Shown here piece after piece: positions 533 to 61,860 of a DNA stretch of 64,000 nt. The first letter of the stretch is position 1. Every line of letters begins with the position of its first letter. The DNA comes from an uncultured archaeon (GTDB lineage Archaea; EX4484-52; JAADEF01). The stretch spans positions 32,001-96,000 of the forward strand of contig CAYOWP010000001.1 of assembly GCA_964407715.1 (NCBI GenBank), written 5' to 3'. The position numbers and the translations under genes are program-made. The notes beneath the pieces were generated by a model that was not told the origin of the DNA, did not search any database, and saw only the letters and a program-made list of their open reading frames with translations.

Positions 533-814
533 TGGATAGGTTATGTTTTCCGTTAACCATTTTTAAAATAATTGGTTAACGGGAAGCATAACCTATCCAA
601 AGCATATTGCAGCAAGGTATCCTTTCAAAAAGGTTAGCTGCTTCAGTCTGCTGGATAAAAGGGTTATGTTTTCCGTTAACCAAATTTTTATTTTAATGAA
701 AAATGGTTAACGGGAGGAAATCGCTTTCTCAAGGCACATTAGAGCATGCTAACCCTCTACAAAAGGTTAGCTACTTCAATACGCCAAATGAAAGGGTTAT
801 ACTTCCCGTTAACC
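533..814. repeat. Palindromic repeat array: half unit 533-558, full units 574-681 and 705-814
   Basis: GGTTAACGGGA...TTCC(C)GTTAACC termini, inner (GC)TAACC/GGTTAGC, AT-rich linkers. Confidence 0.95.
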
Positions 815-875
815 GATTATTTTGCATAAATAAAAAATAGAAAAATTTTTTAATTTATGTGAGAAAGGAAGATTT

Positions 876-2192
876 ATGCCATTAAAGAGATCTTTGGGTT
901 TGTTTGAGGTTACTCTTTATGGTGTGGGAATGATTATAGGAGCTGGTATCTATGTTCTTATAGGTAAAGTTGCTGGATTGGCTGGTTATGGAATATGGCT
1001 AAGCTTTCTACTCTCCTCGTTCATCGCTATTTTTACAGGTTTAAGTTATGCTGAGCTATCTAGCATATTTAAAGAGGATGGAGCAGAGTATGTGTATGTT
1101 AGAGAGACAATACAAAAAGAATATCTGGCATATCTTGCAGGTTGGTTTGTGCTTTTTGGGAGTATTATATCAGCATCTGTTGTAGCATTGGGTTTTGCTG
1201 GATATATGAGTGGCATACTAAATATAAATTATATAACTCCCATAGCTATAGGGATGATTTTTCTATTAACATATATTAATTATCGCGGAATAAATCTCTC
1301 TGCAAAGGTAAATGATATCGCTACTTTTTTAGAAATAGGCGGTTTACTTTTTCTTATTATAGGTATCTCGGCTATAACACTAAAAGAAAACATTTCAATA
1401 CCAGACTTTACTTCCTTTCATATTGGAGGAGTTCTTAATGGTGTCATTTTAGCTTTCTTTGCTTATTTAGGTTTTGGAAGTATAGCAAAGATAAGCGAGG
1501 AAGTCAAAAATCCTGGAAAAACTGTGCCTCTTGCCATTATATTATCCATCTTAATAACCACTTTATTATATGTTTCTGTAGCCTTGATAAGTGTAATTGC
1601 TGTTCCTCCCGAGGAGTTAGCTAAATCGAATGAACCTGCTTCTTTAATAGCATCAAAAATTCATCCTTCATCAGCATTTCTACTCTCCATTATTGCTTTA
1701 TTTTCAACAGGAAATACTCTACTACTTATCTTAGTCTCGTCATCGCGTATGCTTTATGGATTATCAAAGTATGGTGTGTTTCCAAGATGCTTTACCAAGA
1801 TAAGTAAGAGCACCTCAACCCCATATTTGGCTGTTTTAATGGTTGGGCTAATCAGTGCTATATTGTCGCTATTTAAAAAGATTGAAATTGTAGCATCAGT
1901 AACCAATATATGGGTCTTCATAGCTTATATCTTTGTAAATCTTTCAGTAATATTTCTCAGAATAAAAGAAAGACCTTTTAAAGGATTCAGAGCACCTATG
2001 AACATTGGAAAATTTCCTGTGTTTGCGGTATTGGGGATTATCTCTTCATTAATAATGATTATATACCATTTTGCTTATACTCATACAAGCATTAAACATC
2101 CAGATGTATATCTAACAATTTTGCTTATTACAGCTGCAACAATATATTATCTCTATAAGAGGAAAACCGCGATTACACATTCCACTCATTGA
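876..2192 (+). CDS. APC family amino acid permease
   Basis: GMIIGAGIY, YAELSS, FFAYLGF..SEEVKNP motifs; about 12 TM segments. Confidence 0.9.
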   Translation: MPLKRSLGLFEVTLYGVGMIIGAGIYVLIGKVAGLAGYGIWLSFLLSSFIAIFTGLSYAELSSIFKEDGAEYVYVRETIQKEYLAYLAGWFVLFGSIISASVVALGFAGYMSGILNINYITPIAIGMIFLLTYINYRGINLSAKVNDIATFLEIGGLLFLIIGISAITLKENISIPDFTSFHIGGVLNGVILAFFAYLGFGSIAKISEEVKNPGKTVPLAIILSILITTLLYVSVALISVIAVPPEELAKSNEPASLIASKIHPSSAFLLSIIALFSTGNTLLLILVSSSRMLYGLSKYGVFPRCFTKISKSTSTPYLAVLMVGLISAILSLFKKIEIVASVTNIWVFIAYIFVNLSVIFLRIKERPFKGFRAPMNIGKFPVFAVLGIISSLIMIIYHFAYTHTSIKHPDVYLTILLITAATIYYLYKRKTAITHSTH

Positions 2193-2820
2193 AGAATCTT
2201 CTTAAGAACTCCTCCATAAATCTATACCTTTCCTGAGCCATCTCTTTTGCAGTAGGTGTGTTCATCAAATCCTTGAGTTTTAATAGTTTCTCATAGAAAT
2301 GATTGATACTTGTGGATTTGGCTTTCTTGTATTCCTCAAATGATTTGAATTCCTTTGGATGTATATCAGGATCATATATTGCTCTACCTAATTTACCTCC
2401 TGTAGCAAAGCATCTTGCTATGCCTATTGCACCCATTGCATCTAATCTATCTGCATCTTGAACTATTTTTCCTTCCTTTGAGGATGGAACACTTTTACCA
2501 GTGCCTCTAAATGAGATGTCCTTTATGATCTCAAGAACCTTTTGTGTTGTTTCCTTATCAACGCCAAATTTTTTTAGTATCTTGCGTGCATTTTTCAACT
2601 CTTTGCTTTTTTCATTTAATTTCCAATCATCTAAGTCATGCAAAAGAGCTGCCAATTGCAGAACTCTTAAGTTTACATTTCCTTCTTTTTCAGCAATCTT
2701 CAAGGATAGTTTCCATACCCTATAGATATGCCACCAATCATGACCGCTACTTTCATTATAGGTTATTTTCTTTATGTGTTCAGCTATCTCATTGATAAGA
2801 GAATCGTTGCTGAGCTTCAT
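2173..2820 (-). CDS. HD-domain phosphohydrolase (YedJ-like)
   Basis: GHDWWHI..LLHD..QDADRLDAMGAIGIARCF..HFYEKLL; probable start MKLSND at 2820. Confidence 0.85.
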   Translation of the reverse strand: MKLSNDSLINEIAEHIKKITYNESSGHDWWHIYRVWKLSLKIAEKEGNVNLRVLQLAALLHDLDDWKLNEKSKELKNARKILKKFGVDKETTQKVLEIIKDISFRGTGKSVPSSKEGKIVQDADRLDAMGAIGIARCFATGGKLGRAIYDPDIHPKEFKSFEEYKKAKSTSINHFYEKLLKLKDLMNTPTAKEMAQERYRFMEEFLRRFFNEWNV

Positions 2821-2921
2821 AAAAACAAAAATAAGAGAGGATAAATTTAAAAACTTTACTAAATTATATCTACTTATAGGTGGTTGCAGTGGAGAATAAA
2901 GAGAGATTATCAAGAGCATTA

Positions 2922-3119
2922 ATGTTTGAATTTGAGAAGATAGATTCAAATGAAGGAATAGTAAAGGAACTTATGATAGTTGAGAATCCGTTAGCGGGAA
3001 GTTTTAAGGTAAGTAATGGAGAGATTACAGCATACATTTATATGCACAATAAAACTGTAGAGGTCTTTGTGATAGACGAGAATGGAAACATAAAGAATAA
3101 AGAAATTTCCTTAGAGTAA
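2922..3119 (+). CDS. small hypothetical protein
   Basis: ORF in intergenic gap with protein-like composition (MFEFEKIDS...). Confidence 0.5.
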   Translation: MFEFEKIDSNEGIVKELMIVENPLAGSFKVSNGEITAYIYMHNKTVEVFVIDENGNIKNKEISLE

Positions 3120-3125
3120 AAAGAT

Positions 3126-3329
3126 TCAACCTCTTGATGCTATTCTAAAAATTTTTATTTCATCCTCATCATTTATTAAATCTTCATCAGTTACTATCTT
3201 ATTATTTCTTTTCACTATCACTTCTTCAGGATTAATGCCGAGGTTTAAAAGTAGTTCTTTGAGTTTTATTTTCTTTTCTATCTTTATTTTATCAATGCCT
3301 TTTTTATAATTATAGGATATCTTTACCAT
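3126..3329 (-). CDS. ThiS/MoaD-family ubiquitin-like sulfur carrier (SAMP-like)
   Basis: LLLNLGINPEEVIVKRNNKIV..D.I.I.. beta-grasp pattern; ends ASRG. Confidence 0.75.
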   Translation of the reverse strand: MVKISYNYKKGIDKIKIEKKIKLKELLLNLGINPEEVIVKRNNKIVTDEDLINDEDEIKIFRIASRG

Positions 3330-3373
3330 GACTTTATTTAACAAACTTAAGATTTTAAATATGTTGACCTTAT

Positions 3374-3495
3374 AGTATTGAGCAGCAAACTTTGTTAACG
3401 GGAAGCATAGCTTTATACAAAGGGTTAACTGCTCTCATACACTTCTTTGAGAGGTTATGTTTCCGCTTAACAATAAAGAATTATTGGACAATGCC
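3374..3495. mobile_element. MITE-like element containing a short palindrome core; 9-bp TSD TGACCTTAT
   Basis: Right end ATTATTGGACAATGCC, degenerate left end AGTATTG; TGACCTTAT at 3365-3373 and 3496-3504. Confidence 0.8.
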
Positions 3496-3528
3496 TGACC
3501 TTATATAACTGCAGAAACTTATTTAAAT

Positions 3529-4788
3529 ATGGTATATTTTATTCCTTATATGCATACAAAAACTAAGGAAGATCTAAAGGAAATTGATTTACCTGTGATG
3601 AATATAGGCATAGTAGGGCATGTGGATCATGGAAAAACAACTCTTACACAGATGCTTACAGGAAAGTTCACTGATGAACATAGCGAGGAGTTAAAGAGAG
3701 GGATATCAATAAGATTAGGATATGCTGATTTAAAAATAAAAAGATGTCCAAAATGCGGGACATATACTACATTGGATATATGCTTCAATGATAACACTCC
3801 AACACAACTATTGAGAACATATTCTATAATTGATGTACCTGGACACGAGACATTGATAGCTACAGTATTAACAGGAACAGCCCTGATAGATGCTGCTATC
3901 TTAGTAATAGCAGCAAATGAGCCATGTCCTCAACCACAAACAGAAGAGCATTTAACAGCATTAGAAATTGCTGGCATTGACAAAATAATCATTGTACAAA
4001 ATAAAATAGATTTAGTAACAAAGCAACAAGCAATTGAACATTACAAACAGATAAAGGAATTTATAAAAGGCACAATTGCAGAGAATGCTCCTATTATTCC
4101 TGTATCAGCTCATCACAATACCAACTTAGAAGTCCTTTTGGAGTACATTTATAATCTCTTTGTTCCTCCAAAGAGAGATGAAACCTTATCACCAATAATG
4201 TATGTTGCGAGGAGCTTTGATGTCAATAAACCCGGAACAAGAATAAAGGATTTGGTTGGAGGTGTATTAGGTGGTGCTATAAGGCAGGGAATATTTAAGA
4301 TTGGTGATGAAATAAAGATACTTCCCGGTATAAAGAAAGGAGAAAGGTTTATGCCTGTATATACAAAGATAGAGAATATGATGCAGTCTAATAGGAAAAT
4401 AAAAATAGCGAGACCAGGCGGCTTGATAGCTATTTCCACTCTTTTGGATCCTTATTTTACAAAGGGAGATAGTATGGTTGGAAATATAGTGGTCAAGAAA
4501 GATAATGAGGAAGTAGAGGTATATGAGGTGTTACGAGTTAAATATACTCTTATTGAAAGAATTATAGAAAATGAAAGAAAGAAAATTGTTGAGGATATCA
4601 ATGTAAATGATGTGATTTTAATAAACATAGGAACAGCAAGAACCATTGGGATATGCACAAAAAAAGAAAGGGACGTTATTGAATTAAAACTGAAATTGCC
4701 TATTGCAGCTTTTAAGGGAGATAGATGCGTATTATCAATGCAAGTAGATGGTAGGTGGAGATTAATAGGCTATGGAGAGGTGGTGTAG
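3529..4788 (+). CDS. eif2g: translation initiation factor 2 subunit gamma
   Basis: GHVDHGKTT, RGISIRLGY, DVPGHE, QNKID, C-terminal RWRLIGYG. Confidence 0.97.
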   Translation: MVYFIPYMHTKTKEDLKEIDLPVMNIGIVGHVDHGKTTLTQMLTGKFTDEHSEELKRGISIRLGYADLKIKRCPKCGTYTTLDICFNDNTPTQLLRTYSIIDVPGHETLIATVLTGTALIDAAILVIAANEPCPQPQTEEHLTALEIAGIDKIIIVQNKIDLVTKQQAIEHYKQIKEFIKGTIAENAPIIPVSAHHNTNLEVLLEYIYNLFVPPKRDETLSPIMYVARSFDVNKPGTRIKDLVGGVLGGAIRQGIFKIGDEIKILPGIKKGERFMPVYTKIENMMQSNRKIKIARPGGLIAISTLLDPYFTKGDSMVGNIVVKKDNEEVEVYEVLRVKYTLIERIIENERKKIVEDINVNDVILINIGTARTIGICTKKERDVIELKLKLPIAAFKGDRCVLSMQVDGRWRLIGYGEVV

Positions 4789-4789
4789 A

Positions 4790-6363: not shown

Positions 6364-6861
6364 GGTTAACAGGAAAAATCCATTTTACAACCACATTGCA
6401 GCGTGATAACCTTTTTATTTTTGGTTATCTGCTTTGCAATGAGCTTTTTAGCAGATCCTGTTTCCTGTTAACCATTTTTGTTTTGGTTAACGGGAAACAT
6501 ACCTTATCGAGAAACCACATTACAGCATCTAACCATTCTAAAGAGGTTAGCATGCTGTAATTTGGCTTTGAAAAGCGATCTCTTCCCGTTAACCATTTTT
6601 GTTTTGGTTAACAGGAAACATACCTTATCGAGAAACCACATTACAGCAGCTAACCCTTTAAAGCGGTTAGCATGCTGTAATGTGCCTCGGAAAAGTGATT
6701 CTCTCCCGTTAACCAATTTTTATTATTTTTTAAATTGGTTAACTGGAAACATACCTTTTTCATTTGAGGTATTAGAGCAGCTAACCTTTCACTTGGGTTA
6801 GCATGCCGCAAGAGCTTTATGATAGCGATTTCTTCCCGTTAACCATTTATCTGCGTTAACC
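6364..6861. repeat. Palindromic repeat array: units 6364-6473, 6485-6594, 6606-6714, 6737-6844
   Basis: Four 108-110 bp nested palindromes, linkers of 11-22 bp. Confidence 0.95.
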
Positions 6862-6946
6862 ATTATCTTTAAAATAAATCAAGAGATTGTTTCAGAGAAG
6901 CAGAGATATTGTGGTATCAAAGAAATTTGTGTAAATATGAAGAGAA

Positions 6947-14241: not shown

Positions 14242-14375
14242 AGCATTGTCCAATAATGTGTTTTGAGAAATTTTGTTAACGGGAAACATAGCTATATTTA
14301 AAGGATTAAACTGCTATAAGTGTTATTTGCGCGTTAAGTTTCCACTTAACAAATGGAGGATTATTGGACAATGCC
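14242..14375. mobile_element. MITE-like element, perfect 15-bp TIR, 9-bp TSD (1 mismatch)
   Basis: GCATTGTCCAATAAT 14243-14257 / ATTATTGGACAATGC 14360-14374; TATAGGGTG 14233-14241 vs TATAAGGTG 14376-14384. Confidence 0.85.
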
Positions 14376-15713: not shown

Positions 15714-15979
15714 ATTCTTCTGTTAACCAAAAATAAAAAATGGTTAAAGGGAAGCATAGCCTATTCATTTGGCATGTTGAAGCAACTAACCTTTCATAGA
15801 GGTTAGCATGCTGTAATGTGCCTTGTAGAAGGGATATTCTTCCGTTAACCTTTTATTTTAAATAAAAAATGGTTGGGTGAAACATAACTTCTTAAGAGAG
15901 TATGTAACAGCAGCTAACCTGCTTAGAAAGGTTAGCTGTCTTGATATTCTGAATGAAGGGAGTAGCCTTTTCGTTAACC
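15714..15979. repeat. Palindromic repeat array: end fragment, units 15742-15850 and 15871-15979
   Basis: Same nested palindrome; linker TTTTATTTTAAATAAAAAAT. Confidence 0.9.
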
Positions 15980-25168: not shown

Positions 25169-25440
25169 GGTTAACGAGAAAGCATCTTTTCCAAGAGGTT
25201 TAGAGCATGCTAACCATTGAAAAAGGTTATGTGCTGCAAGTCGGTTTTTGATATTGGGCATCTTCCCATTAACCAAATTTTCTAATAAAAAACAATTGTT
25301 AACAGGAAAATATCGATATTCTCCAGTGAATGCGGCATGCTAACCTTTTGATAAGGCTAGGTGCTGTAAATGTGCCATTTGAATGGCTATACTTTCCCTT
25401 AACCAATTTTAAATAAAAATTGTTAACGAGAAATATCATT
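25169..25440. repeat. Palindromic repeat array: units 25169-25274, 25297-25404, truncated third from 25421
   Basis: Degenerate copies between convergent atpD and hjc. Confidence 0.9.
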
Positions 25441-34642: not shown

Positions 34643-35154
34643 ATGGTGCGAATTTTGATTTTTGGAGATAGTATAGCATATGGAGCTTGTGATAAAGAGG
34701 GAGGATGGGTTCAAAGGTTAAGAAAATTTTTTGATGAAAATTATGAAGATTATCTAATTTATAATTTAAGTATTTCTGGCGATACTACAGAGGAGTTAAT
34801 TAAAAGATTTGAATTTGAAGCAAAACAACGATTAAAGGAAAAAGATGAAACAATTATAATTTTTGCTATTGGGATAAATGATTCTCAGTTTGTTCATAGT
34901 AAAAATAAAAATAGAATAGCATTGGAAAAATTCAAAGAAAATCTTCGAAAATTAATTCAACTTGCTAAGAAATTTTCCTCAAAAATTATTTTTGTTGGTT
35001 TGACTCCTGTTGATGAAACAAAAACAACACCAATCATTTGGGATATAAATAAATTATACAAAAATGAATACATTCAAAAATAAATTCAGAAGGGCATCAG
35101 AAAATTTTTGAAATTGTAAAGGATTTCATGGTTGAAAGATTACTTTCTTCATAA
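34643..35154 (+). pseudogene. SGNH/GDSL hydrolase pseudogene (internal deletion plus frameshift)
   Basis: FGDSI, GIND present; stop at 35083; C-terminal NSEGHQKIFEIVKDF continues in another frame; catalytic DxxH missing. Confidence 0.75.
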
Positions 35155-35164
35155 TCGCTATGAA

Positions 35165-35236
35165 GTGTTAAACCGCTATAAGTGCTATTTGCGTGTTATG
35201 TTTCCGCTTAACAATAGAGAATTATTGGACAATGCC
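35165..35236. mobile_element. partial MITE-like element (one end)
   Basis: GCTATAAGTGCTATTTGCGTGTTATGTTTCCGCTTAACAATAGAGAATTATTGGACAATGCC matches the 14.3 and 48.1 kb copies. Confidence 0.8.
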
Positions 35237-37537: not shown

Positions 37538-38920
37538 ATGGGCAGTGAGCATTTTAGTTTGTCTTTTATTTTCTTTATTATTGTGATAATGATAATGCTT
37601 TTTATAGAGAAAAAGAACTTTAAGAGAGAGGGAATAGTGTTTCTAAGAAGGAGCTCTAAAGGTTTAGCATTTTTGAAAAAACTTTCTAAGAAGTATGGGA
37701 GAATAATAAATTATCTTGGCGATTTTGCCGTGGTTTTGAGTTATGGTTTGTTCTCATGGAGATATATATTCAAAGAAAGCAAAAATAAGAGATATGCCTT
37801 TTGCTTATTAGCAATATATTTCTTTATAGCGTGGTTGGTGTATGATCACTTTAAGTTCTTGGAATCTGCCATACTTGGGATATGGAACTCAGAAAGATAT
37901 TCCTCCTTAATTATTAATATATCAAGATTATTTGGATATGGGCTTGGAATAGGAGGTTTAGCTTTTTTCTTACTTTCAATAGGCTCTTTCTCCATTCTTT
38001 ACAATTCTTTGTTCCTCCTTAAAGAGGTGCAACCTCCTCTTCAAATAGTTCTTCCTATAAGTGTTCCATCAAAATACAATCTTCCAGTCCTAAGCGTGCC
38101 ATTTGATAAATGGCTTATAAGTGTGGTTGTGCTTGTAATAGTGCATGAATTCGCTCATGCGATAATGTCAGCATCCAACAATATTAGGGTTAAGAGTGTT
38201 GGTTATGGATTTATGCTGTTTTTGCCTTTAGGATTTGCAGAGCCTGATGAGAGACAATTAAAAAAGAGCAAACTCATTAATAAGCTCCGCGTCTATGCTG
38301 CAGGGAGTTTCTCAAATTTTATTTTTGCATTAATATTTGGCCTTCTTTTTATTCCTTTTAATTTTGGGTTAAAGCATATGGATGTATATGAGTTTCAGGG
38401 AATATGCTATAATGGACTTGTAAAGTGGACCAATGCACCATCAGTATTGCCTGTTAATGGAACTATAACCCACATTGATGGAGTACAATTGCATAATTTC
38501 ACTCATTTTGCAAAAGTTTTGAATTCATATCATCCTGGCGAGAATATAACACTCACAATAAATGGCACCAACTATACTGTTACCTTATGTGAAAGTCCTA
38601 AGAATTCATCTTTGCCTTTTATAGGGATAATGCATGTAGGAGAGAGATATGAGATGAAGGAAGATGTAAAAAACAATCTTCTTAAGAAAATAACCTTCTA
38701 TCTTCTCCTTTATTTTGGTTCTTTATTTATGTGGATAAGTCTGCTCAATTTAGGTATAGGAATCGCGAACTTACTTCCATTAATACCACTAGATGGAGGG
38801 CTTATGATTAAGGAAATGTTGGAAAGGCATAGAGCAATATATCTTACTATCTTTATCTTGACTTTCCTTCTATTAGTCTTTTCTTTGTTTGGTAAATTTA
38901 TCATCAAGATATTCCTATGA
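37538..38920 (+). CDS. site-2 protease (M50) with PDZ-like insert
   Basis: HEFAH, FAEPD, AAGSFSN, NLLPLIPLDGG. Confidence 0.92.
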   Translation: MGSEHFSLSFIFFIIVIMIMLFIEKKNFKREGIVFLRRSSKGLAFLKKLSKKYGRIINYLGDFAVVLSYGLFSWRYIFKESKNKRYAFCLLAIYFFIAWLVYDHFKFLESAILGIWNSERYSSLIINISRLFGYGLGIGGLAFFLLSIGSFSILYNSLFLLKEVQPPLQIVLPISVPSKYNLPVLSVPFDKWLISVVVLVIVHEFAHAIMSASNNIRVKSVGYGFMLFLPLGFAEPDERQLKKSKLINKLRVYAAGSFSNFIFALIFGLLFIPFNFGLKHMDVYEFQGICYNGLVKWTNAPSVLPVNGTITHIDGVQLHNFTHFAKVLNSYHPGENITLTINGTNYTVTLCESPKNSSLPFIGIMHVGERYEMKEDVKNNLLKKITFYLLLYFGSLFMWISLLNLGIGIANLLPLIPLDGGLMIKEMLERHRAIYLTIFILTFLLLVFSLFGKFIIKIFL

Positions 38921-40354
38921 AGGCCTGGGTATTCGTGCTCCTTCATCTCTTAAGTGCCTCAATATCTCAATACCATAACGATACACAAGATTATTTAAAA
39001 GTGCTTCTGAGTTGTCCATCATCTTAATCTCTTCCTTTATGATTTTTGGATCAACATATCCAAAATAATCCAAGGCTATTTTTAATTCTTTATGTTTTTT
39101 GGCATACTTTGGAAGAGCAATACATTTTGCTATTGCATCTGCTGCCTGTCTAAAAGACTTTGCCCCTCCCTCCACACCTAATGGATGGCCATGTACTCCA
39201 CCACCTCCTTGAAATACAAAATCTTTGCCATGAATAACACTCAAAGCATCCCCCTTGCCGGCATCTAACCCACCAGATGCTACTGGCATGACAGGCTTAA
39301 TATGAGGAGAATACTTAAAATCCAAACATCCCAAGTATGGTATTTTTCTAACTTTTCTGTTTACTGCTAACTCATGAAGATATGATATGTATTTTGATGA
39401 CCCCTCCATTTTGCCAACGCCTGTACCAATATGAAGCTGATCAACACCAAGCATTCTGTATATCTTAAGCAAAATCTTGAAATCATATCCATACACTCCT
39501 CTATGCATAGCAGCATATCCTGCTCTATGTGCATGAACTATCAATCTTTTCTTATGCGCATATTTCACAAGCTCATAAGTTAAAGCAAACCCTAACATGA
39601 ACACATCAAGCATTACACATTTTCCTCCTCTTTCTGCAATATAATCTATTCTCTCGTACATTCTATGAATGTCTTGATCAGTGATATTGCTTGCGTAGAG
39701 CTTCCTCTCGCCGGTTTTGTTCTCGGCTTTTGACATCTTATCAAAAACCAAATCAAAGCGATCCCTCCATCTGCAAAAATCTTGATCAACTAAATTCTCA
39801 TCATCCTTTACAAAATCCATGCCATTAACATAGCATTTATATGCCACGTCACTCCATTCCTCTGGACTTAATCCAACCTTTGGTTTAACAATCGTACCAA
39901 CATGAGGTCTCCTTGTTTTTGTTGTGCCTATATACTTTCTAATACCATCTAATCCATATTTTGGACCCGGAAACATATTTTGGAATCTTTTTGGAAACTT
40001 TATGTCAAGAATCATCAATTCCTCTATTTCTTTTAAACCATATACATTGCCCAAGACAGAGGCAAGGAATTGTAAGAGATTCTTGCTATCAAAATGCTCG
40101 TATGGATATGCAAGATAAACAAAACCACTATTATTTTTTACATGCACAAGATGATACACTCTTGCGCGATAATCACGAAAGATATTCTCGCTCATAGTGC
40201 TTATTTTTGTCCACGTACCTACAGAGCTCTCTGCTGCTAATCCCTCTGCCAAAACCTCCAAGGGAGCATCTCCTTTTACCCATGCCAATACCAAAAAATC
40301 GCTTTCTTTTGGTACATAATTTAAATCCAAATAAAGATATCCACCATAACTCAT
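38915..40354 (-). CDS. rbcL: RuBisCO large subunit, form III-like
   Basis: AAESSVGTW, TIVKPK, DFVKDDE, HAHRA, GVGKMEG, ASGG, GGGGVHGHP. Confidence 0.92.
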   Translation of the reverse strand: MSYGGYLYLDLNYVPKESDFLVLAWVKGDAPLEVLAEGLAAESSVGTWTKISTMSENIFRDYRARVYHLVHVKNNSGFVYLAYPYEHFDSKNLLQFLASVLGNVYGLKEIEELMILDIKFPKRFQNMFPGPKYGLDGIRKYIGTTKTRRPHVGTIVKPKVGLSPEEWSDVAYKCYVNGMDFVKDDENLVDQDFCRWRDRFDLVFDKMSKAENKTGERKLYASNITDQDIHRMYERIDYIAERGGKCVMLDVFMLGFALTYELVKYAHKKRLIVHAHRAGYAAMHRGVYGYDFKILLKIYRMLGVDQLHIGTGVGKMEGSSKYISYLHELAVNRKVRKIPYLGCLDFKYSPHIKPVMPVASGGLDAGKGDALSVIHGKDFVFQGGGGVHGHPLGVEGGAKSFRQAADAIAKCIALPKYAKKHKELKIALDYFGYVDPKIIKEEIKMMDNSEALLNNLVYRYGIEILRHLRDEGARIPRPS

Positions 40355-40375: not shown

Positions 40376-41233
40376 TCATATTAGCTCATCAAGAGGATTC
40401 CTAACTTTTCTTAATTCCTCTAAACTAACCTTGGTATATATTTGGGTGGTTTGTAAGTTGGCATGTCCAAGGAGTTCTTGGATCTTCCTTAAACTTTCAC
40501 CTTGCTCCAACAAATGTGTTGCAAATGTATGCCTGAGTACATGAGGAGTTACCTCTTTTTGAATTGCTGCTTCTTCCCTTAATCTTTGAATAATCTTTTG
40601 AACCAATCTAACAGAAATGTGGTTTCTTTTATGCTTGGAAAAGAACACATAATCTTCGCCAACAAGATTATGCTTGTTGAAGTATCTTCTTAGAAGATCA
40701 ACAATTTTCTCTCCTAAAACGACAATACGATCTTTTTTCCCTTTTCCTCCCCTGACCCTTAAGATTCTTTCATTCAAATCAAAATCTTTAACTTTAAGAT
40801 TAACCAATTCACTCACTCTTAAACCAGTGGAATAAAGGAGGAGGCATATCATTTTGTCTCTGTCTTTTTCAGCAGTATTGATGAGCCTTTTAACCTCTTC
40901 TCGCGTTAGCACTATTGGTAGCTTTTTGTCTCTTTTTGGTGTAGGTAAATCCTCTTCGCTAATTCTAAGGTTTTTGATTCTTTTTAAGTAGAAAACGATT
41001 GCTGCTTTAACTGCAGCAATGCTTGATGGAGTATAGCCTTCTTCATCTATAAGATATGATAGAAATCTCTTTGCAGAATCTACAGATATCTTTAATCCTT
41101 TCTTTTCAATGTATCTAAGATACATATTCACATGAATAAGATATGACTTCAAGGTTTGCTCGGTATATCCACTCAACAAAATCTCTGACCTAAGCTTCTC
41201 CAATTCCTGCTGAATCCTTTTATTTGTTTCCAT
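40376..41233 (-). CDS. xerA: tyrosine recombinase XerA
   Basis: TGLRVSE, GKGKKDR, HVLRHTFATH, LLGH..TTQIY; no IntI-specific insertion. Confidence 0.9.
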   Translation of the reverse strand: METNKRIQQELEKLRSEILLSGYTEQTLKSYLIHVNMYLRYIEKKGLKISVDSAKRFLSYLIDEEGYTPSSIAAVKAAIVFYLKRIKNLRISEEDLPTPKRDKKLPIVLTREEVKRLINTAEKDRDKMICLLLYSTGLRVSELVNLKVKDFDLNERILRVRGGKGKKDRIVVLGEKIVDLLRRYFNKHNLVGEDYVFFSKHKRNHISVRLVQKIIQRLREEAAIQKEVTPHVLRHTFATHLLEQGESLRKIQELLGHANLQTTQIYTKVSLEELRKVRNPLDELI

Positions 41234-42627: not shown

Positions 42628-43932
42628 ATGTCTGGAACTCAAGTTATTACAGAGAAAAATATTAAGAAAAATGTGATAGTAACAGAAAAGAATTTGGAAG
42701 CTGAGAATATCTTAAAAGATTTGGAAGAGAGCTATAAAGAGGGGTTAATATCAAAAGAGACATATGAAAAAGCAAAACGTTCTGTTTTGATGAATAAAGA
42801 AGATAAAAGTGAAAAGGAAGAAGTTCAAGAGGTTAAGGAGAAGAAAAAGGATAGAAAAAAAGAAGAGAGAGATAAGAAAATCTCTTTTATAAAGAGAAGA
42901 CATGTAGAAGAACTTAAAAAGATGAAGGAAAATTGGATAAAGGATCTCGAGTCTCTAAGAAGTTTGTATGAGCATGGCGTAATCTCTGAGGAAGAATATG
43001 AGAGAAGTAAAATAGATATCGAGGAAAAAATTGGTAAGATAGAGGAGATAATAAAAAAGGAATTGGAGGTTGAGGAATTAGAGGAATTAAAAGAGAGAAT
43101 CGAGAAAGAAATAAGGGAGGCATTTGATAAAGGGATATTTAAAGAAGAGGAAAGTAAACTAAAAAAGGATCTTGAAGCATTGGATTCGCTATTTGAAAGA
43201 GGTCTAATTTCCAAAGAGGAATACCAGAAAAAGAGGGAACTTATAGAAAGCCAACTTGAGAACTATTCTAAGTTAATAGATTTAATTGATGCAATATTTG
43301 ATAAATTCATTGAGGAAATAAATCAGAAGATTGAAGAAAACAAGGAAGCCACAAAACAGAAAGAGATTGAGGAACCAAAAGAAGGAGAGGTAAAGAAAGA
43401 GGTTAAAAAATATCCTTGGTATCTCAAACTTCTTCATATACTTGGATTATATGAAATAAAAGAAGAGGAAATAGCAGAGATAAATGAGATAGAAGAGCAA
43501 ATCAAAAAGGCATATAAGGAGAGTGAGATGAGATTCAAAATAAGCAATATGGCTCTTGTTATAAAGAGGAGAGTTAAGGAAATAATGAATATAGATAAGG
43601 CATTAACCTATAAGGAATTAATAGATTATATAGATAAATCTGACAAATTTGATGAGAATATTAAGGTAAAGCTTAGATCCTATTTCCAAGCTGTAATGCT
43701 TAAGGAATATCTTGAAAAGGAAGATGAGAAAGATATTGAAAACATCTATAAAGAGAGTTTAGAGATTGCTAAGTTATTAAGCAATATAGAGGAGAAAAAG
43801 AGAACTCAGAAGAAACCTGAAAAAGAGAAATCTATTGAAGAAAAAGGAAAAGAAGAGGTGGAAGAGAAAAAAGAAGAAAAAGAGAAAAAGAAAGGAATTT
43901 TTGAGAGGATAAATGAGTTCTTTGGTGTGTAA
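42628..43932 (+). CDS. coiled-coil protein with three SHOCT-like repeats
   Basis: L..L(Y/F)..G(L/V)IS.EEY...K occurs three times. Confidence 0.75.
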   Translation: MSGTQVITEKNIKKNVIVTEKNLEAENILKDLEESYKEGLISKETYEKAKRSVLMNKEDKSEKEEVQEVKEKKKDRKKEERDKKISFIKRRHVEELKKMKENWIKDLESLRSLYEHGVISEEEYERSKIDIEEKIGKIEEIIKKELEVEELEELKERIEKEIREAFDKGIFKEEESKLKKDLEALDSLFERGLISKEEYQKKRELIESQLENYSKLIDLIDAIFDKFIEEINQKIEENKEATKQKEIEEPKEGEVKKEVKKYPWYLKLLHILGLYEIKEEEIAEINEIEEQIKKAYKESEMRFKISNMALVIKRRVKEIMNIDKALTYKELIDYIDKSDKFDENIKVKLRSYFQAVMLKEYLEKEDEKDIENIYKESLEIAKLLSNIEEKKRTQKKPEKEKSIEEKGKEEVEEKKEEKEKKKGIFERINEFFGV

Positions 43933-44548: not shown

Positions 44549-45215
44549 TTATGCGTTTAACCTTAAAAAGCGATTTGAAACAGATAACCTTTTTAAAGCA
44601 GTTAGCTGCTTAAAAAACCTTTGTGTTATTGAGATTTTCCCGTTAACAAATTAAAAATTTTTAATAAAAATGGTTAACGGGAAGATATCACTATCACAAG
44701 CACATTACAGCATGCTACCCTCTTAAAAAAGGTTAGCTGCTTGAAAACGCTAAATGAAAGGGTTATGCTTCCCGTTAACAAATTATTTAAAAAATAAAAA
44801 ATGGTTAACGGGAGGAAATCGCTATCATATAAAGTTTTGCAAGCATGCTAACCTCTACAAAAGGTTAGCTGCTTCTTAACCGCTTTAGAAAGGTTAGCTG
44901 CTTCAATACGCCAAATGAAAGGGTTATGCTTCCCGTTAACCAATTATTTTAAAAATAAAAAATGGTTAACGGGAGGAAATCGCTTTCTCAAGGCACATCG
45001 CAGCATGCTAACCTCTTTTCAGGTTAGCTGCTTCAAACCGCTCGAGAAAAGGAGCTATGCTTTGATGCGCTATTGATAAGGTATGCTTCCCATTAACAAT
45101 TTTTTAAATAATTTGGTTAACATGAGACCTCTCTTATCAATAGCACATTAAAGCATGGCATCCTTTCTTGAGCGGTTTGAAGCAGCTAATCTTTTAACCC
45201 TTAATTTGGTTAATA
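44549..45215. repeat. Palindromic repeat array: partial ~44557-44648, units 44672-44780, 44803-44941, 44964-45098, partial from 45115
   Basis: Largest uninterrupted array; includes long double-loop variants. Confidence 0.95.
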
Positions 45216-45287
45216 TGCCGCAACTTACAGATTGACAAAAAAATTTGATATAATTTTAAAAAATTATTTTTACATAATATAATCTTT

Positions 45288-45893
45288 ATGGTTAATTCCA
45301 AGATTTTTGATTTGCTTATTCAGGCAAACGCAATAGAGTTGGGAGGGCATTATGAGATATTTCCAAATACATATTCTCCAATATATTTCGATTTTAGGAA
45401 ATTCTTTGAGAATCCAAGATTGTTTGATATCTTGACAGATTTACTTGCTGATGTGACAAGAGAAATCAATCCAGAAAAGATTGCCGGTGCTTTTACTTCA
45501 GGCATTCCATTAGCTACTGCTATCTCTTTAAAAACCAACCTACCTATTGTTTTTGTTAGAAGACAGCCAAAGGAATATGGAAGCAGGGCAATGATAGAGG
45601 GTACGGTAAAAGAGGGAGAGAATGTGATGATAGTGGATGATATCTTTTCAACCTTAAAAAATAATGAAGCATATATAAACGCGCTAAGATCAGCAAAGGC
45701 AAATGTAAGATACTTTTTGGTTATATTTGATTATGGCATGACACCACCAGAAAAGCTATTAGAGGCTGGGATAGAGGTTATCTCTCTTATCACTGCTAAG
45801 GATTTGCTAATAAAATTAGAGAAATGGGGCAAGATAACAAAGGAGGAAAGAATGGAGTATATGAGGATACTAAAATATTCCAAGGTGTTCTAA
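45288..45893 (+). CDS. pyrE: orotate phosphoribosyltransferase
   Basis: SPIYFDFR, RRQPKEYG, IVDDI. Confidence 0.85.
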   Translation: MVNSKIFDLLIQANAIELGGHYEIFPNTYSPIYFDFRKFFENPRLFDILTDLLADVTREINPEKIAGAFTSGIPLATAISLKTNLPIVFVRRQPKEYGSRAMIEGTVKEGENVMIVDDIFSTLKNNEAYINALRSAKANVRYFLVIFDYGMTPPEKLLEAGIEVISLITAKDLLIKLEKWGKITKEERMEYMRILKYSKVF

Positions 45894-48122: not shown

Positions 48123-48270
48123 GGCATTGTCCAATAATTCTTTATTGTTAAGCGGAAACTTAACGCGCAAATAGCACTTATAGCAGTAATCGCATTAGCT
48201 CCATAAGGTTAGCTTTCTCTGATGCGCTTCTTTGAAATGTTACTTTCATAGGGAATTATTGGACAACACC
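48123..48270. mobile_element. MITE-like element, 9-bp TSD (T/C)GGCTTTAT, overlapping signal peptidase 3' end
   Basis: GGCATTGTCCAATAATTC / GAATTATTGGACAACACC; TSD 48114-48122 and 48271-48279. Confidence 0.85.
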
Positions 48271-50280: not shown

Positions 50281-50515
50281 AGTTAACAGAAAACATATCC
50301 AATTCATCAGGAGGATTTTAGTGTTGTAATACTTAAAAAGCGGTTAGGAGCGGGTATCCTTTTACATGGATCATCCTGCTATAATATCCTAATGATAGAG
50401 ATATTTTCCTGTTAACTATTTTATTAAAGAATTTGTAACCATATCAAAAGCATTCCGTATAGCAGTTAACCTTTTAAGGAAATGAGGGCATTATCCAATA
50501 CTTCTTTATTGTTAA
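50281..50515. repeat. degenerate palindrome unit 50281-50417, fragment ~50435-50475, MITE end 50487-50515
   Basis: AGTTAACAGAAAACATA...TTCCTGTTAAC; GGCATTATCCAATACTTCTTTATTGTTAA. Confidence 0.7.
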
Positions 50516-50679
50516 ATGAGATCTATAAGATAACATTATTTTCATTTTATATTCTCCATTATATATTTTTAAGTATATTAACATAATTATGTTTAATCAC
50601 TACAATATATATTTTGAAATGTTAAAATCACTTAAAAGTAGTGAAAAGGAATTTTGTGGCTCCTTTATCTTTCATATGT

Positions 50680-51255
50680 TTATGCGAACAAAAATTCAGT
50701 TAACGAAAAAATGTGCTTCTTGATATCTCTCAGGTTTGCAGCATGGTAATCTCAATAAAGGGTTAGCTGCTTTCTAACCGCTTCGGAAAGGTTAGTATGT
50801 TCTGATATGCTATTGATAAAGTACTCTTCCTGTTAACCAATATTTTATTTTGAACCCTCTCGCAGCATACTACCCTCTACAAAAGCCATCAATGTGTTCG
50901 CATAAGGTTTATTATGCGAATTTTATTACTTGGTTAAGGGAAAGCATAGCCATATCCAAAAACCACTTTCAAGCAGCTAACCCTTTATTGAGGTTACCAT
51001 GCAGCAATGTGGTTGTGAAAGTGATTTCCTCCCATTAACCATTTTTATTTTGGTTAACGGGCAGCATAACCTATTCATTCAGCATATCGAAGCAGCTAAC
51101 CTTCTTAAGCGGTTAGTATGCTGCAATGTGCCTTAAAGAGGTGATATCCTCCCGTTAACCTTTTATTTTAAATAAAAATGGTTAAGGGGAAGAATCCCTT
51201 CTTAAAAAAAGTGTATCGAAGCAGCTAACCTTTATAGAAGGAATTGTTCGCATAA
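50680..51255. repeat. palindrome arrays (units 50698-50838, 50932-51040, 51052-51160, partial from 51180) bracketed by TTATGCGAACA/TGTTCGCATAA arms
   Basis: Arms at 50680-50690, 50895-50905, 50912-50922, 51245-51255. Confidence 0.9.
50895..50922. other. dif-like Xer recombination site candidate
   Basis: TGTTCGCATAA-GGTTTA-TTATGCGAATT: 11-6-11 with the CATAA/TTATG core of dif sites; xerA about 10 kb away. Confidence 0.6.
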
Positions 51256-51325
51256 AAATATTTCCTTTAAGATATATTTTGCAGTGTATTAACATATTTT
51301 TGTTGAAATACTATGAAATATATAT

Positions 51326-51658
51326 TTGATGATATATAATTGGGGACATAGAAATCGTAAAAATTTTAAAACTTTTCTATTTAAAGAAAAAATAAATATT
51401 CCTACATATTATGGGATGTTAGAATATAAAGGACATTATTTTCTTATCATGGAAAAAATAAATGGAATAACTTTAGCAGATCTCTATAACGACAAGGAGA
51501 TTCAATATAAGATAATAAGAAACATTGAAAAGAAACTAGAAAAGATCCCTAAAATAAAAGAAGTTAAAGACAGACATGCATATAATGTTATGATAAATAA
51601 CAAAAACAAACTTTATCTTATTGATTTAGAAGGAATAAAGATAAATGATTTCGCATAA
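51326..51658 (+). pseudogene. protein-kinase-like fragment (RIO/Bud32/APH-like C-lobe)
   Basis: LIMEKINGITL, DRHAYNVMI, LYLIDLE; N-lobe Gly loop/Lys absent. Confidence 0.55.
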
Positions 51659-55861: not shown

Positions 55862-55867
55862 AATAAA

Positions 55868-58188: not shown

Positions 58189-58204
58189 AAGGAGGTGCAA
58201 TAAC

Positions 58205-58474: not shown

Positions 58475-58475
58475 C

Positions 58476-59153
58476 TCAAAATAATCTTTTTTGTTTTATT
58501 TTTCCTTTTATATTATAGATAGTGCTCCACATTGTCCTTGCCTCTTCTGGAAATTTTTTGTTCTCCTTGAAAAAATTTTCCAAGAATGTAATTGTTCTTC
58601 TATCAGAAGGATACCCACTGCCAATATCACCATACTTTTCATATTTTTTTCGTATTGCATCCATTTCCCTCTCGCGATAATACTTTGCAATTATGCTCGC
58701 AGCAGATACAACTTCATATTTACTATCTGCTCCATGCTCCACCACAAAAACCTTTTTTGGAAACTTATCATTAAATGCAACCTTTAATTTATTTGCATTT
58801 GGATAAAAGGCATCTATAAAGATTTTTGATGCCTTAGTTTTTTCAATCAATTTTGAGAATCCTGCATACTCTATCTCATTTAATGTGTTAAACATCATAT
58901 AAGCATTAATTTTGTATGGATCAATAATCTCTACAAATACGTTATTTGCGATTTTCTTTATTTGCTTAAAAAGAAAACTTATGTTATTAAAAGAAAGCTC
59001 TTTGCTATCTCTAACATTGATTTCCCTTAGAAGTTCTATATCTTTTTCGTATATCTCAACCCCTGCAATAATCAACGGCCCAAGAACAGGACCTCTACCT
59101 GCCTCATCTATGCCAAAAATCATATTATTTCTTTTCATATTCTTTATTTTCAT
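58476..59153 (-). CDS. rnhB: ribonuclease HII
   Basis: GIDEAGRGPVLGP, DSK, VSAASIIAK, GSGYPSD. Confidence 0.97.
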   Translation of the reverse strand: MKIKNMKRNNMIFGIDEAGRGPVLGPLIIAGVEIYEKDIELLREINVRDSKELSFNNISFLFKQIKKIANNVFVEIIDPYKINAYMMFNTLNEIEYAGFSKLIEKTKASKIFIDAFYPNANKLKVAFNDKFPKKVFVVEHGADSKYEVVSAASIIAKYYREREMDAIRKKYEKYGDIGSGYPSDRRTITFLENFFKENKKFPEEARTMWSTIYNIKGKIKQKRLF

Positions 59154-59472
59154 TTTTTCTTTTTAAAATATTATATATCCTCCGAATTGGTGAGGAAATA
59201 ATCAGAATCATCTCCCTTATCACCTCATATACATTAACAAAAAGATTTAGGAACTCAAATAAGGCATATATCAAAAACACAAATGCCAAGAGAATCAAAT
59301 AATGAATTATGGAGAGATTTAATGAAAAAACCCTTTCAACAATAAACAAAACGATTAACGCAGAAATAGCAAGAATCATAAGATTTCTAAGAATATTAAA
59401 TAAATAAAACAAAATCAAAATTGCTATTAAAATAAGAAATAGATAAAGAAAATTTATTTCCATAATTCTCAT
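59125..59472 (-). CDS. small membrane protein
   Basis: Three hydrophobic segments. Confidence 0.6.
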   Translation of the reverse strand: MRIMEINFLYLFLILIAILILFYLFNILRNLMILAISALIVLFIVERVFSLNLSIIHYLILLAFVFLIYALFEFLNLFVNVYEVIREMILIISSPIRRIYNILKRKNENKEYEKK

Positions 59473-60176
59473 CCTATTTTGGCTGGAGTTAATAACACAT
59501 CTGTCTTTATTATTCCTTCTCCTTTAAATACAATCTTGTTTCCTTTTAAGGTAAGGGTACCTTTTATCCTCAGAATTTTTACATCTTTATTTGATGTAAC
59601 ATATGAAATTTTATCATTCTTTATTTTTATATTTATATTGCCTTTGAATCCCTTTAACTCTATAACATCTTGAGTTATATGCTCTAATTCCATTTTCTCT
59701 AAATCAGTAATAGAAGAATTGCAAAGTATTTTTCCTTCTTTCTCTATCTCAAAGCTTGCAGAAGGTAAAATAAGCTTTTTTACTTTTCCTTCAAGAATGA
59801 AAGTATTCATTTCAGGATAATAAAGAACATCACCGCTATAATTGATAAGATTTACCTCTTTTTGTACATTTAATTTTCCAGAATCTAAGGAAATGTTTAT
59901 AGGAGCGTCTTTCTTATATATAGCAATATTTATGTTATCGACTTTCATTCTTATATCTCCGTGAAAGCTGCCATTTAATTCTAAGAAAGCATAAATATAC
60001 TCATTATCCTTCTCCTTAAATTTTGTTAAAAAACCAGAAGGAAGAGAATTAACAAATCTTAAATCTGCAATAGAATCAAAATTGATATTTTTTTCATTAA
60101 AAAAGAGATATCCTGAAAGTAAAATGGCTGAGATGCCAAGTATCATAAAAGCTAATGCTCGATGAATTGCAGCCAT
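59469..60176 (-). CDS. membrane-anchored beta-rich hypothetical protein
   Basis: N-terminal TM helix, 235 aa. Confidence 0.65.
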   Translation of the reverse strand: MAAIHRALAFMILGISAILLSGYLFFNEKNINFDSIADLRFVNSLPSGFLTKFKEKDNEYIYAFLELNGSFHGDIRMKVDNINIAIYKKDAPINISLDSGKLNVQKEVNLINYSGDVLYYPEMNTFILEGKVKKLILPSASFEIEKEGKILCNSSITDLEKMELEHITQDVIELKGFKGNINIKIKNDKISYVTSNKDVKILRIKGTLTLKGNKIVFKGEGIIKTDVLLTPAKIG

Positions 60177-60232
60177 AAGAATTATATTATTATAATAAAC
60201 TTTTTAAATTTTTCTATACCGCAAATAATAAT

Positions 60233-60403
60233 ATGGTAAGATTAAACAAGAAATTAAAGAAGTACTTACCACAAACAACAGCAGGATTAGTAAGGTATTA
60301 TGAAGAGGATCGCTCTAAGATTCAAATAGATCCAAAAACACTCATAGCTGTTTCATCTGCCTTAATTGTGATAGGAATTATATATCATCTCTTATTTTTA
60401 TAA
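60233..60403 (+). CDS. secG: preprotein translocase subunit Sec61beta
   Basis: Manual translation LPQTTAGLVRYYEED.SKIQIDP plus TM; below ORF-track cutoff. Confidence 0.9.
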   Translation: MVRLNKKLKKYLPQTTAGLVRYYEEDRSKIQIDPKTLIAVSSALIVIGIIYHLLFL

Positions 60404-60415
60404 GGGAGATTTCCT

Positions 60416-60796
60416 ATGAGAAGATATCCAAAATATAAAAGAAAGGAATATATGGAAAAGCTTTATGAAATAATAAATAAACTTCTTGAATTAAAAGACC
60501 ACATCTTCATAGTAGAAGGTAAGAAAGACATAGAAAGTCTTATGTTCTTAGGAATAAGCAAAAAGCAAATATATGCTGTCTCTAACAAGGAAATAAGCAA
60601 AATACTGTGTGCTGTTCAAGGCAAAAAATTAATTGATTTTTTAGATAACGATAAAGAAGGTATTAATATAAAGGAAAATCTTTTAAGGCATAACATATAT
60701 GTTGACTCAAAATATAAGAATGATCTCTTCAAACTTCTACAAATTACAAAAACTGAAGAGATAAAAAGGAGAATAATGAAACTCAGATTATTCTAG
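60416..60796 (+). CDS. small Toprim-domain protein
   Basis: IVEGKKD..L, FLDNDKEG. Confidence 0.8.
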   Translation: MRRYPKYKRKEYMEKLYEIINKLLELKDHIFIVEGKKDIESLMFLGISKKQIYAVSNKEISKILCAVQGKKLIDFLDNDKEGINIKENLLRHNIYVDSKYKNDLFKLLQITKTEEIKRRIMKLRLF

Positions 60797-61639
60797 CATA
60801 TTCCATATGAGATCAAAAGTCCTAGATGCAAAGTTCTTAACAAAGTGTTGTGATCCTGTCCATATAGAAGATTGAGCCACAGGATGTTTCTGTTTGTCAT
60901 GTGTTAGATGCATCAATGTTTCTTTGTCATCACTTATTGCTAAACGTGTATATGGAAGTTGATCTTTCATTTTATTTGCATCCTTTATTTCTGCAATATC
61001 AGATAAAACTTCATATGCTTTTTTATTTTCTTCTGTGATAGGGGCTATTATTCTTATTTTGATTCCTCTTTCATAAGCATCTCTCAAAATTGGATAATAT
61101 CTTCTATAGATGTCATTTAATCCTGTATCAGATACCATGATATCTATCTTCTTTTTAGCATTCTTAAAAAGATATTCTTCGTGATTATCTATAACAAATT
61201 TTCCTTTTATAGTGCTTACGAGATCTCCTTCTTCCTCTTCTTTCATTTTATTTTTATGCAATTCTTCTAATTGAGAAACAACTTCTGTCTCTTTGAAACT
61301 TTCAATAAGCTTTGCTGTTTTCTGAGCTCTTTCTATGATATTCCTTGCAGCTCTACTCAATGCTTCTTTTGGAGGTACGGCAATATATTTCATAGGTTTA
61401 GAATGCTGAATCATAACAAAACCTTTATCTGCAAGGCTCATAAGAACATCATATACTCTTGCTCTTGGAACTCCTGATAAATCAGCCAATTCTCCTGCTG
61501 TTGATGTCCCACGCAAAAGTAACCATACATATAGTTTTCTTTCATATAAATTTAATCCTATAGTCTTTAGCATTTCCAATGCCTCATGAGGTAATGCTTC
61601 CTTATGTGGCATAATTTCCTTCTCTCTCACATATACCAC
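60788..61639 (-). CDS. TrmB family transcriptional regulator
   Basis: GLNLYE..Y, SGVPRARVYDVL, PLD-like C-terminus. Confidence 0.9.
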   Translation of the reverse strand: MVYVREKEIMPHKEALPHEALEMLKTIGLNLYERKLYVWLLLRGTSTAGELADLSGVPRARVYDVLMSLADKGFVMIQHSKPMKYIAVPPKEALSRAARNIIERAQKTAKLIESFKETEVVSQLEELHKNKMKEEEEGDLVSTIKGKFVIDNHEEYLFKNAKKKIDIMVSDTGLNDIYRRYYPILRDAYERGIKIRIIAPITEENKKAYEVLSDIAEIKDANKMKDQLPYTRLAISDDKETLMHLTHDKQKHPVAQSSIWTGSQHFVKNFASRTFDLIWNMLE

Positions 61640-61729
61640 CCATAACCCTTTAGAATCAGAAATTCTTCACTCAATTAATATTATAATTTGAATAAATTTT
61701 TAAATTTTAAGGTTAAAAAATTTTTGAAA

Positions 61730-61860
61730 GGGATTGTCCAATAATTCTCTATTTGTTAAGCGGAAAAGTAACCTCTTAAAGAAGCGTATTAAAGCAGCAA
61801 ATCTCGTAGAACGTTTTTAAAGCAGCTAACCACTAAAGATAAGGCTGGCATGCCCTAATG
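61730..61860. mobile_element. partial MITE-like element with palindrome core
   Basis: GGGATTGTCCAATAATTCTCTATTTGTTAAGCGGAAA...GCAGCTAACC...GGCATGC. Confidence 0.75.

Follow-up and report, generated by a model that had tools for sequence, protein, structure and literature searches.

Palindromic repeat arrays in the genome of an uncultured archaeon share their core with an IS903-like MITE

The subject of this study is a family of palindromic repeats in a 64,000-nt stretch of the genome of a small, uncultured vent archaeon of a DPANN lineage (contig CAYOWP010000001.1, positions 32,001 to 96,000; hereafter, the window) and in the remainder of that genome. An earlier analysis, made from the letters of the window alone (the sequence-only reading), had described the repeats as a dispersed family in tandem arrays, with units selected for structure and spread by an enzyme encoded elsewhere. 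Here, we show that the repeat unit is the core of a true MITE, a miniature transposable element with inverted repeats, of the same genome. Our analysis suggests that the family probably consists of lineage-specific, non-coding, selfish or neutral palindromic repeats, the arrays of which recombine, the hairpin of which is decaying, and the core of which is common to an IS903-like MITE. The family is undescribed, yet represents an ordinary type of selfish DNA; what sets it apart is its load and the fact that its modules assort freely. The evidence supports neither structural selection nor a new mobile system, and no new mechanism is shown.

Census of the family and build of the unit

The genome assembly amounts to 898.5 kb in 16 contigs, with 32% G+C and an estimated completeness of 92%; the window corresponds to contig C1:32001-96000. 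Contig C9 (44 kb) repeats C8:7161-50856 in reverse complement, with 100% identity. This assembly or binning redundancy inflates the genome size and any repeat count by ~5%, so C9 was dropped from the counts, and genome-wide figures are for 854,509 bp. With a profile made from oriented units, we obtained 427 non-overlapping matches covering 35,057 bp, which merged into 133 tracts of 39,581 bp in sum. These tracts overlap open reading frames (ORFs) of at least 90 aa, which make up 84.9% of the genome, by only 990 bp. Although the genome is very small and closely packed, with median gaps of 7-17 bp between co-directional or convergent genes, this one repeat family takes up 4.6% of its DNA and ~30% of the DNA outside ORFs.

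In the window, the terminal 12-mer of the unit (at most one mismatch) occurs 28 times against 0.09 expected, and none of 100 shuffled sequences contained as many, which bears out the earlier description of a dispersed, palindromic family; as detailed below, the family is also lineage-specific. Strict parsing by the two termini identified 183 complete units genome-wide, 99 of them 103-111 bp in length, 77 of them 132-141 bp, and seven of odd lengths. The long class (~136 bp) differs from the short class (~108 bp) by a second copy of a 28-nt central hairpin module. The single conserved length of 106-110 bp that had been read from the window must accordingly be replaced by two length classes.

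Each unit consists of 12-bp terminal inverted repeats, which start with GGTTAAC, two arms of ~30 bp, and in the centre a hairpin module, present once or twice. The arrangement, from terminus through arm, central hairpin and second arm to the other terminus, with A/T linkers between units, is as first described, and can be seen in the window at 0.5, 6.4, 44.6 and 50.2-51.3 kb. Units are asymmetric. They have an A end and a B end, which differ in their sub-terminal motifs, and the central hairpin contains an asymmetric bulge. These direction markers are fully consistent in 30 units; in three, the end type conflicts with the central asymmetry, and seven have A-type ends on both sides. Complete units are grouped into 75 arrays of one to seven. 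At junctions where both orientations are known, 76 of 83 are head-to-tail, and 25 more were undetermined. Linkers are A/T-rich and 9-27 bp long; between units of the same direction they span 9-25 bp, most often 20-22 bp, and nearly all begin with A and end with T. Short units have a mean identity of 74.0% between arrays and 76.7% when adjacent, with no pair above 90%, and for only 15 of 89 units is the nearest relative a member of the same array. Conservation is far higher in the termini and central hairpin than in the arms, a contrast which in the case of the termini is partly built in by the way units were picked.

A MITE with IS903-like ends

Elements at 3.4, 14.2, 35.2, 48.1 and 61.7 kb of the window had been taken for shortened cores of the unit. 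They are indeed present, but form a distinct, related sub-family which bears an extra, outer inverted repeat. Ends of this type number ~100 in this genome, versus 0-1 per relative. Among 48 elements bounded by two outer repeats, 15 have 9-bp flanks that agree with at most one mismatch (six perfectly), compared to 6 of 5,000 control pairs. This excess over controls establishes the outer-repeat sub-family as a true MITE with a 9-bp target duplication. The outer repeat and the inverted repeat, IRL/IRR, given for IS903B in PMC10569121 agree at 14 of 18 bases; for a variant with six copies in the genome, agreement rises to 15 of 18. The direct repeat given there for IS903B is 9 bp. Apart from these ends and duplications, the sub-family shares with MITEs of the IS903 group (IS5 family) a length of 130-160 bp and an intergenic, non-coding character.

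A unit of the same kind forms the core of this MITE. The MITE interior is a unit-like hairpin with related termini, and complete array-type units lie inside two MITEs. MITE copies are closer to one another than array units are (median nearest-neighbour identity 0.91 versus 0.82-0.83). The family is thus related to a MITE, as suggested earlier, but only the sub-family with outer repeats is itself one. Unlike IS903-group MITEs, the array units, which are the bulk of the family, have neither outer repeats nor target duplications and stand head-to-tail, and their own 12-bp terminal repeats are unlike the IS903B inverted repeat. Direct repeats of at least 8 nt flank units or arrays in 6 of 75 cases, against 80 of 2,000 controls, which is not above the A/T-rich background.

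In viral contigs, the outer-repeat pattern gave eight single matches, none extending into an element. One copy of the outer repeat (1 mismatch) is found in a genome of the same family, G003 (C94:34-51), 33 bp from the end of the contig. It could be the remnant of a related element, in which case the MITE lineage would be older than this species.

Recombination within arrays

Across 10,440 unit pairs, similarity of the A arms is uncorrelated with similarity of the B arms (r = 0.04). The A arms are at least 90% alike in 26 pairs, and in none of these 26 are the B arms also at least 90% alike. Arms are likewise unlinked to the adjoining linker and to the arm of the next unit. Four long units at C4:40112-40750 form a criss-cross patchwork of common arms. 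In 11 of 59 cases, the linkers on the two sides of a unit share at least 90% identity, compared to 0.6% of control pairs.

A metagenome contig, L066, comes from a near-identical strain and aligns to C11 with 99.1% identity over 2,051 bp (flanks ~99-100%). It contains an extra unit and linker, while one 28-nt hairpin module is present only in C11. The flanks and four units are near-identical in the two strains, and ~12 changes are packed into one unit. The divergence of units is mosaic, not clock-like. Taken together, the uncorrelated arms and the one-unit difference between strains point to recombination at the conserved motifs. We propose that homologous recombination at the conserved termini and hairpin lengthens, shortens and rearranges the head-to-tail arrays, by way of unequal crossing-over and gene conversion over short tracts, and that insertion of one unit at a time would be a less likely route. 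The sub-parts of the unit are in near-complete linkage equilibrium, which lends the family to studies of recombination over short tracts in an uncultured lineage of DPANN archaea, and to use as a marker of strains.

The hairpin belongs to the consensus

In 82 oriented short units, 74.4% of cells pair as in the consensus hairpin, compared to 35-48% when the partners are slid, indicating that the consensus is truly palindromic. Within this consensus, the two halves of a unit do not match each other better than they match other units. When the 3′ partners were shuffled among sequences, pairing averaged 75.2%, and 498 of 500 shuffles equalled or exceeded the observed value. For covariation, the observed score was 0.124 and that of the shuffles 0.135, with 494 of 500 reaching or surpassing the observed one. 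In the 15 column pairs ranking highest by corrected mutual information, Watson-Crick cells make up no more than 38%, and the spacing is mostly 4-6 columns. Arm complementarity, calculated for 77 units, was 1.27 within units and 1.39 between units. Nor is either strand favoured: the mean folding energies are -30.7 and -31.2 kcal/mol, with 78 and 82 of 160 units favouring one strand or the other, and G:U cells are barely more frequent than A:C cells (303 versus 255). RNAalifold predicted the terminal and central stems only (19 pairs) from 12 units of the window, and no pairs from the 82 units.

The direction of arrays in co-directional contexts shows no link to the direction of the genes (13 versus 8). 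In Rfam, the only matches at gathering level were three tRNAs; relaxing the limit to E = 1 added nothing but microRNA-type noise far below the thresholds. The hairpin thus belongs to the consensus only, and is not maintained as an RNA or DNA structure. The proposal of structure-selected units is not upheld, since pairing and compensatory covariation are no higher than in shuffles and the two strands fold alike, and no Rfam family matches. This result, together with the resemblance of the outer repeat to a described insertion sequence (IS) end, removes most of the novelty that had been claimed. It also calls for caution, as arrays of this sort may be mistaken for structured RNA or a new mobile system.

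Genomic context and distribution

Tracts are found in 50 of 138 gaps between divergent genes, 14 of 139 between convergent genes and 41 of 429 between co-directional genes. The enrichment between divergent genes is pronounced (50/138 versus 55/568 other gaps; Fisher odds ratio 5.3, p = 7e-13). It is what tolerance alone predicts, because the other gaps are very short, with medians of 7-15 bp. Tract edges lie at least 59 nt from start codons (10th percentile) and down to 13 nt from stop codons, a spacing consistent with selection only against hitting core promoters. It had been stated that the repeats occupy all gene contexts alike, and hence are not simply promoters or terminators. All contexts are indeed occupied, though not evenly, and the repeats are not a simple promoter or terminator.

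A covariance model of the family, R1, found it only in this genome. There were no matches in 40 relatives, or in 41 when the whole class or phylum was searched, and the negative genomes include a congener with proteins only 69-80% identical. A strict 22-base pattern matched two isolated sites in bacteria among 185,579 species genomes, both negative with R1, and nothing in viral contigs; in metagenome contigs it matched five loci, of which only L066 carries the family. Comparison by blastn with plasmids and phages gave no match. In the congener, no clean empty sites were seen at the orthologous gaps. Its contig C225 ends 32 bp after the ATP synthase D gene, where this genome has an array, and at the deoxyhypusine synthase locus on its contig C251 the synteny differs, with another gene following directly.

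The stretch is present in six DNA runs from vent or sediment metagenomes, and none of the runs listed is recorded as RNA. In a second sample, contigs span both 50457-51326 and 44928-45677, differing by 1-3 letters and 1-2 gaps, which indicates that the arrays are real; the many joints in aligned contigs at 44.6-45.1 kb were not used, as at 90% likeness they may come from other repeat copies. In addition, a near-identical seven-unit array (the C11 array, 99% identity) lies on an independent metagenome contig. The concern that the arrays might be artefacts, raised when they were first reported, is settled in their favour by these second-sample contigs and the independent contig.

Enzyme searches and comparison with known elements

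The assembly contains no match to PF01797 (Y1_Tnp/RAYT), a profile that matched in 6 of 14 genomes in a control search, and none to PF01609 (DDE_Tnp_1), PF05598 (DUF772) or PF13586 (DDE_Tnp_1_2). The genome also has no rve integrase, RVT_1 reverse transcriptase or IS5 N-terminal domain, and the only two matches to PF07282 (TnpB zinc ribbon), at 16-17 bits, fall below the cut-off. The sub-family with outer repeats therefore differs from IS903-group MITEs in that their DDE_Tnp_1 transposase was not found in this assembly. PF01609 is present in 19 of 41 relatives. At ten PF01609 loci fetched from relatives, no MITE end was seen at up to two mismatches, and the two nearest lack convincing inverted repeats. 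The idea of an enzyme encoded elsewhere stays a conjecture, in that no transposase family searched was found in the 92%-complete assembly. The sole tyrosine recombinase of the genome is in the window itself, at 40376-41233 on the minus strand. It is a XerA equivalog (261 bits versus a cut-off of 220) with no repeats alongside, so the earlier statement that the window holds no cas or transposase gene needs a supplement: a housekeeping XerA is present, and it is not flanked by repeats. The xerA gene lies directly downstream of the gene for the large subunit of RuBisCO (38915-40354).

The family had also been likened to repetitive extragenic palindromes (REPs), to bacterial interspersed mosaic elements (BIMEs) and to REPINs. 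According to PMC3733652, REPs are 20-40 bp long, carry a GTAG or CGTC tag, and lie mostly downstream of genes, often in opposite orientation, with RAYT genes accompanying the GTAG type. The present repeats resemble them in being abundant, species-specific, intergenic imperfect palindromes in mosaic arrays, with conserved stems and variable parts. The comparison fails on size (108 or 136 bp), on the tag (no GTAG or CGTC at the consensus termini or central hairpin), on orientation (head-to-tail), on location (upstream of or between divergent genes) and on the RAYT gene (PF01797), which was not found. Nor does the family have the features of palindromic elements derived from IS200/IS605, as the units have 12-bp terminal inverted repeats, and the genome has no PF01797 and only sub-threshold PF07282 matches; the missing target duplication and the directional stacking of units would fit.

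CRISPR arrays had been set aside from the start, rightly so: units differ by ~26%, and the linkers are A/T-rich and only 9-27 bp, which does not correspond to a repeat-spacer form. The real CRISPR array of the genome lies at C4:76561-77860, with 20 repeats of 30 nt and spacers of 36-38 nt, and its repeat is unrelated to the family. Its 19 spacers show no match to the repeat family, nor, beyond chance, to any other part of the genome. Another modular system is provided by the BOX elements of Streptococcus pneumoniae, which are hairpin-forming, have the form boxA-boxB(n)-boxC, and are dispersed singly. Their internal module, variable in copy number, recalls the one or two central hairpins seen here; they differ in being bacterial, unrelated in sequence, and not arranged in long head-to-tail arrays.

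Two further explanations were tried and discarded. A link to restriction sites is not apparent, as GTTAAC occurs 162 times outside the tracts versus 278 expected, which is unremarkable beside other hexamers. The linkers do not represent a target duplication of ~20 bp, since solitary units and array edges lack such a duplication.

In a MITE-Tracker census of 183,232 genomes, DPANN are the most MITE-dense archaea, with 146/Mb in Altiarchaeum and 105/Mb in a Woesearchaeal genome, and the top genome share named there is 1.23% (PMC11602168). Set against the figures named in that census, the load here is higher, with at least 183 complete units and 48 MITE-type elements in 0.85 Mb, or 4.6%. The motifs of the family turned up in the searchable literature only as two coincidences with plant primers. 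A literature search for MITEs in DPANN yielded only this census, its preprint and an unrelated preprint on diversity-generating retroelements.

Weighing the explanations

We favour the reading that these are selfish or neutral repeats reshuffled by recombination. The hairpin shape would be inherited from a palindromic ancestor and now be decaying, and selection would only keep the tracts out of genes and core promoters. Several observations weigh against this reading. For neither the MITE nor the units was a transposase found, so that scars are the only sign of mobility. Given that array units lack target duplications, the reading does not account for how ~130 loci were first seeded, and inward-facing outer repeats accompany 4 of 75 arrays only. 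Conservation of the termini and central hairpin far exceeds that of the arms, which could reflect function. In only ~4 of the 11 cases of identical linkers is the middle unit the chimera predicted by unequal crossing-over, and adjacent units are barely more similar than distant ones (76.7% versus 74.0%).

Alternatively, single units may have been moved by an HUH/Y1 transposase, like REP/RAYT or IS200/IS605-derived elements, with the enzyme lost, unbinned or encoded in the host. Insertion beside a target carried by the element itself would yield head-to-tail stacks without target duplication, in line with the unit borders and with the 76 of 83 junctions at which directional units follow head-to-tail; the conserved, imperfect central hairpin with its asymmetric bulge and a slight G:U excess in the arms (165 versus 109) also fit. 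We regard this as unlikely, because the assembly offers no Y1_Tnp match and only the two sub-threshold TnpB zinc-ribbon matches, and because such elements lack the 12-bp terminal inverted repeats of the units. Furthermore, the unlinked arms mean that whole-unit copying is not the main process, and no two short units exceed 90% identity. It is improbable, too, that the conserved GGTTA-type motifs are sites for a host DNA-binding protein, in arrays domesticated, for example, as promoter insulators or for nucleoid organisation. The terminal, sub-terminal and central motifs are far better conserved than the arms, 36% of divergent gaps hold a tract, and tracts end ~60-90 nt upstream of start codons. 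However, tolerance alone would equally give the divergent enrichment, the absence of the family from the congener and the wider group means that no function is conserved, and many copies are degenerate (427 profile matches versus 183 complete units). There is a similarly slim chance that the GTTAAC-type termini and bulged hairpin are recognition sites for a recombination activity, of XerA or another enzyme, that swaps the 30-bp arms and adds or removes units. This would be a transposase-independent, site-directed process undescribed in archaea, rather than passive homologous recombination.

It has also to be asked whether the units encode small structured RNAs, or represent RNA elements whose transcription starts in the A/T-rich linkers. 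Each unit can fold into a long hairpin, the linkers with their T-runs could act as archaeal TATA boxes or terminators, and tracts are located upstream of genes. This explanation is already disfavoured, and we consider it very improbable: compensatory covariation and orientation bias relative to genes are lacking, both strands fold alike, Rfam gives no match, the family was not found in 41 related genomes, and the arms are randomly shuffled. Least of all do we believe that the arrays are assembly or binning artefacts, a notion to which we assign almost no probability. One contig is redundant (C9, the exact copy of part of C8), and short-read contigs break within the array at 44.8-45.0 kb. Against this, two arrays are bridged by second-sample contigs, the C11 array recurs on an independent metagenome contig, and units that differ by ~26% are not easily collapsed or chimerised.

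Repeats and neighbouring genes in the window

The nhmmer profile identified 11 tracts in the window, 2,559 bp in sum, at the positions first reported. Strict parsing gave 15 complete units, to which one with a degenerate end (44964-45098) can be added, making 16; four units in the window are of the long class. The features are as follows.

533-814, minus strand: array between divergent genes, with a unit remnant (533-558) and short units 574-681 and 705-814
3393-3495, no strand assigned: MITE-type fragment, with a unit-like terminus at 3393 and a single outer inverted repeat ending at 3495
6364-6868, plus strand: array of four short units, 6364-6473 reversed and 6485-6594, 6606-6714 and 6737-6844 forward, with a terminal remnant to 6868
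14242-14375, no strand assigned: complete MITE of 134 bp, outer inverted repeats enclosing a shortened unit; the 9-bp flanks agree at 8 of 9 positions
15742-15979, plus strand: short unit 15742-15850 and degenerate unit 15879-15979
25169-25404, minus strand: short units 25169-25274 and 25297-25404, between the ATP synthase D gene and hjc
35150-35236, no strand assigned: MITE-type fragment, left boundary approximate, whose one outer inverted repeat ends at ~35236
44563-45224, minus strand: largest array of the window, made up of a partial unit, one short unit (44672-44780), two long units (44803-44941, 44964-45098) and a fragment (45164-45224)
48123-48270, no strand assigned: complete MITE of 148 bp, bounded by outer inverted repeats; the direct repeat of 9 bp at its flanks agrees at 8 of 9 positions
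50281-50417, plus strand: degenerate long unit of 137 bp
50487-50506, plus strand: solitary, degenerate outer inverted repeat of the MITE sub-family
50698-51241, plus strand: long unit 50698-50838, short units 50932-51040 and 51052-51160, and half unit 51180-51241
61730-61881, plus strand: MITE-type fragment in which a partial unit comes after one outer inverted repeat

In the array at 6364-6868, two 11-bp linkers are identical. The genes of the window are archaeal, and include those for eIF2-gamma, Hjc, A-type ATP synthase, deoxyhypusine synthase and the large subunit of RuBisCO.

Other repeats in the genome are of a different kind. Tandem repeats with a 69-nt period (3-7.5 copies) at C14:19437-20481, C2:112927-113226 and C8:6047-6260 are unrelated to the hairpin family, and look like coding repeats of a surface or beta-helix-type protein. 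In the window, the gene at 42628-43932 (plus strand) encodes a 434-aa protein with SHOCT domains and a Lys/Glu-rich low-complexity stretch, which corresponds to tandem repeats at 43794-43889. Finally, a gene for a DUF3800-family protein (62977-63591, plus strand) lies within an A/T-rich stretch (25-28% G+C, 56-64 kb) that could be foreign DNA.

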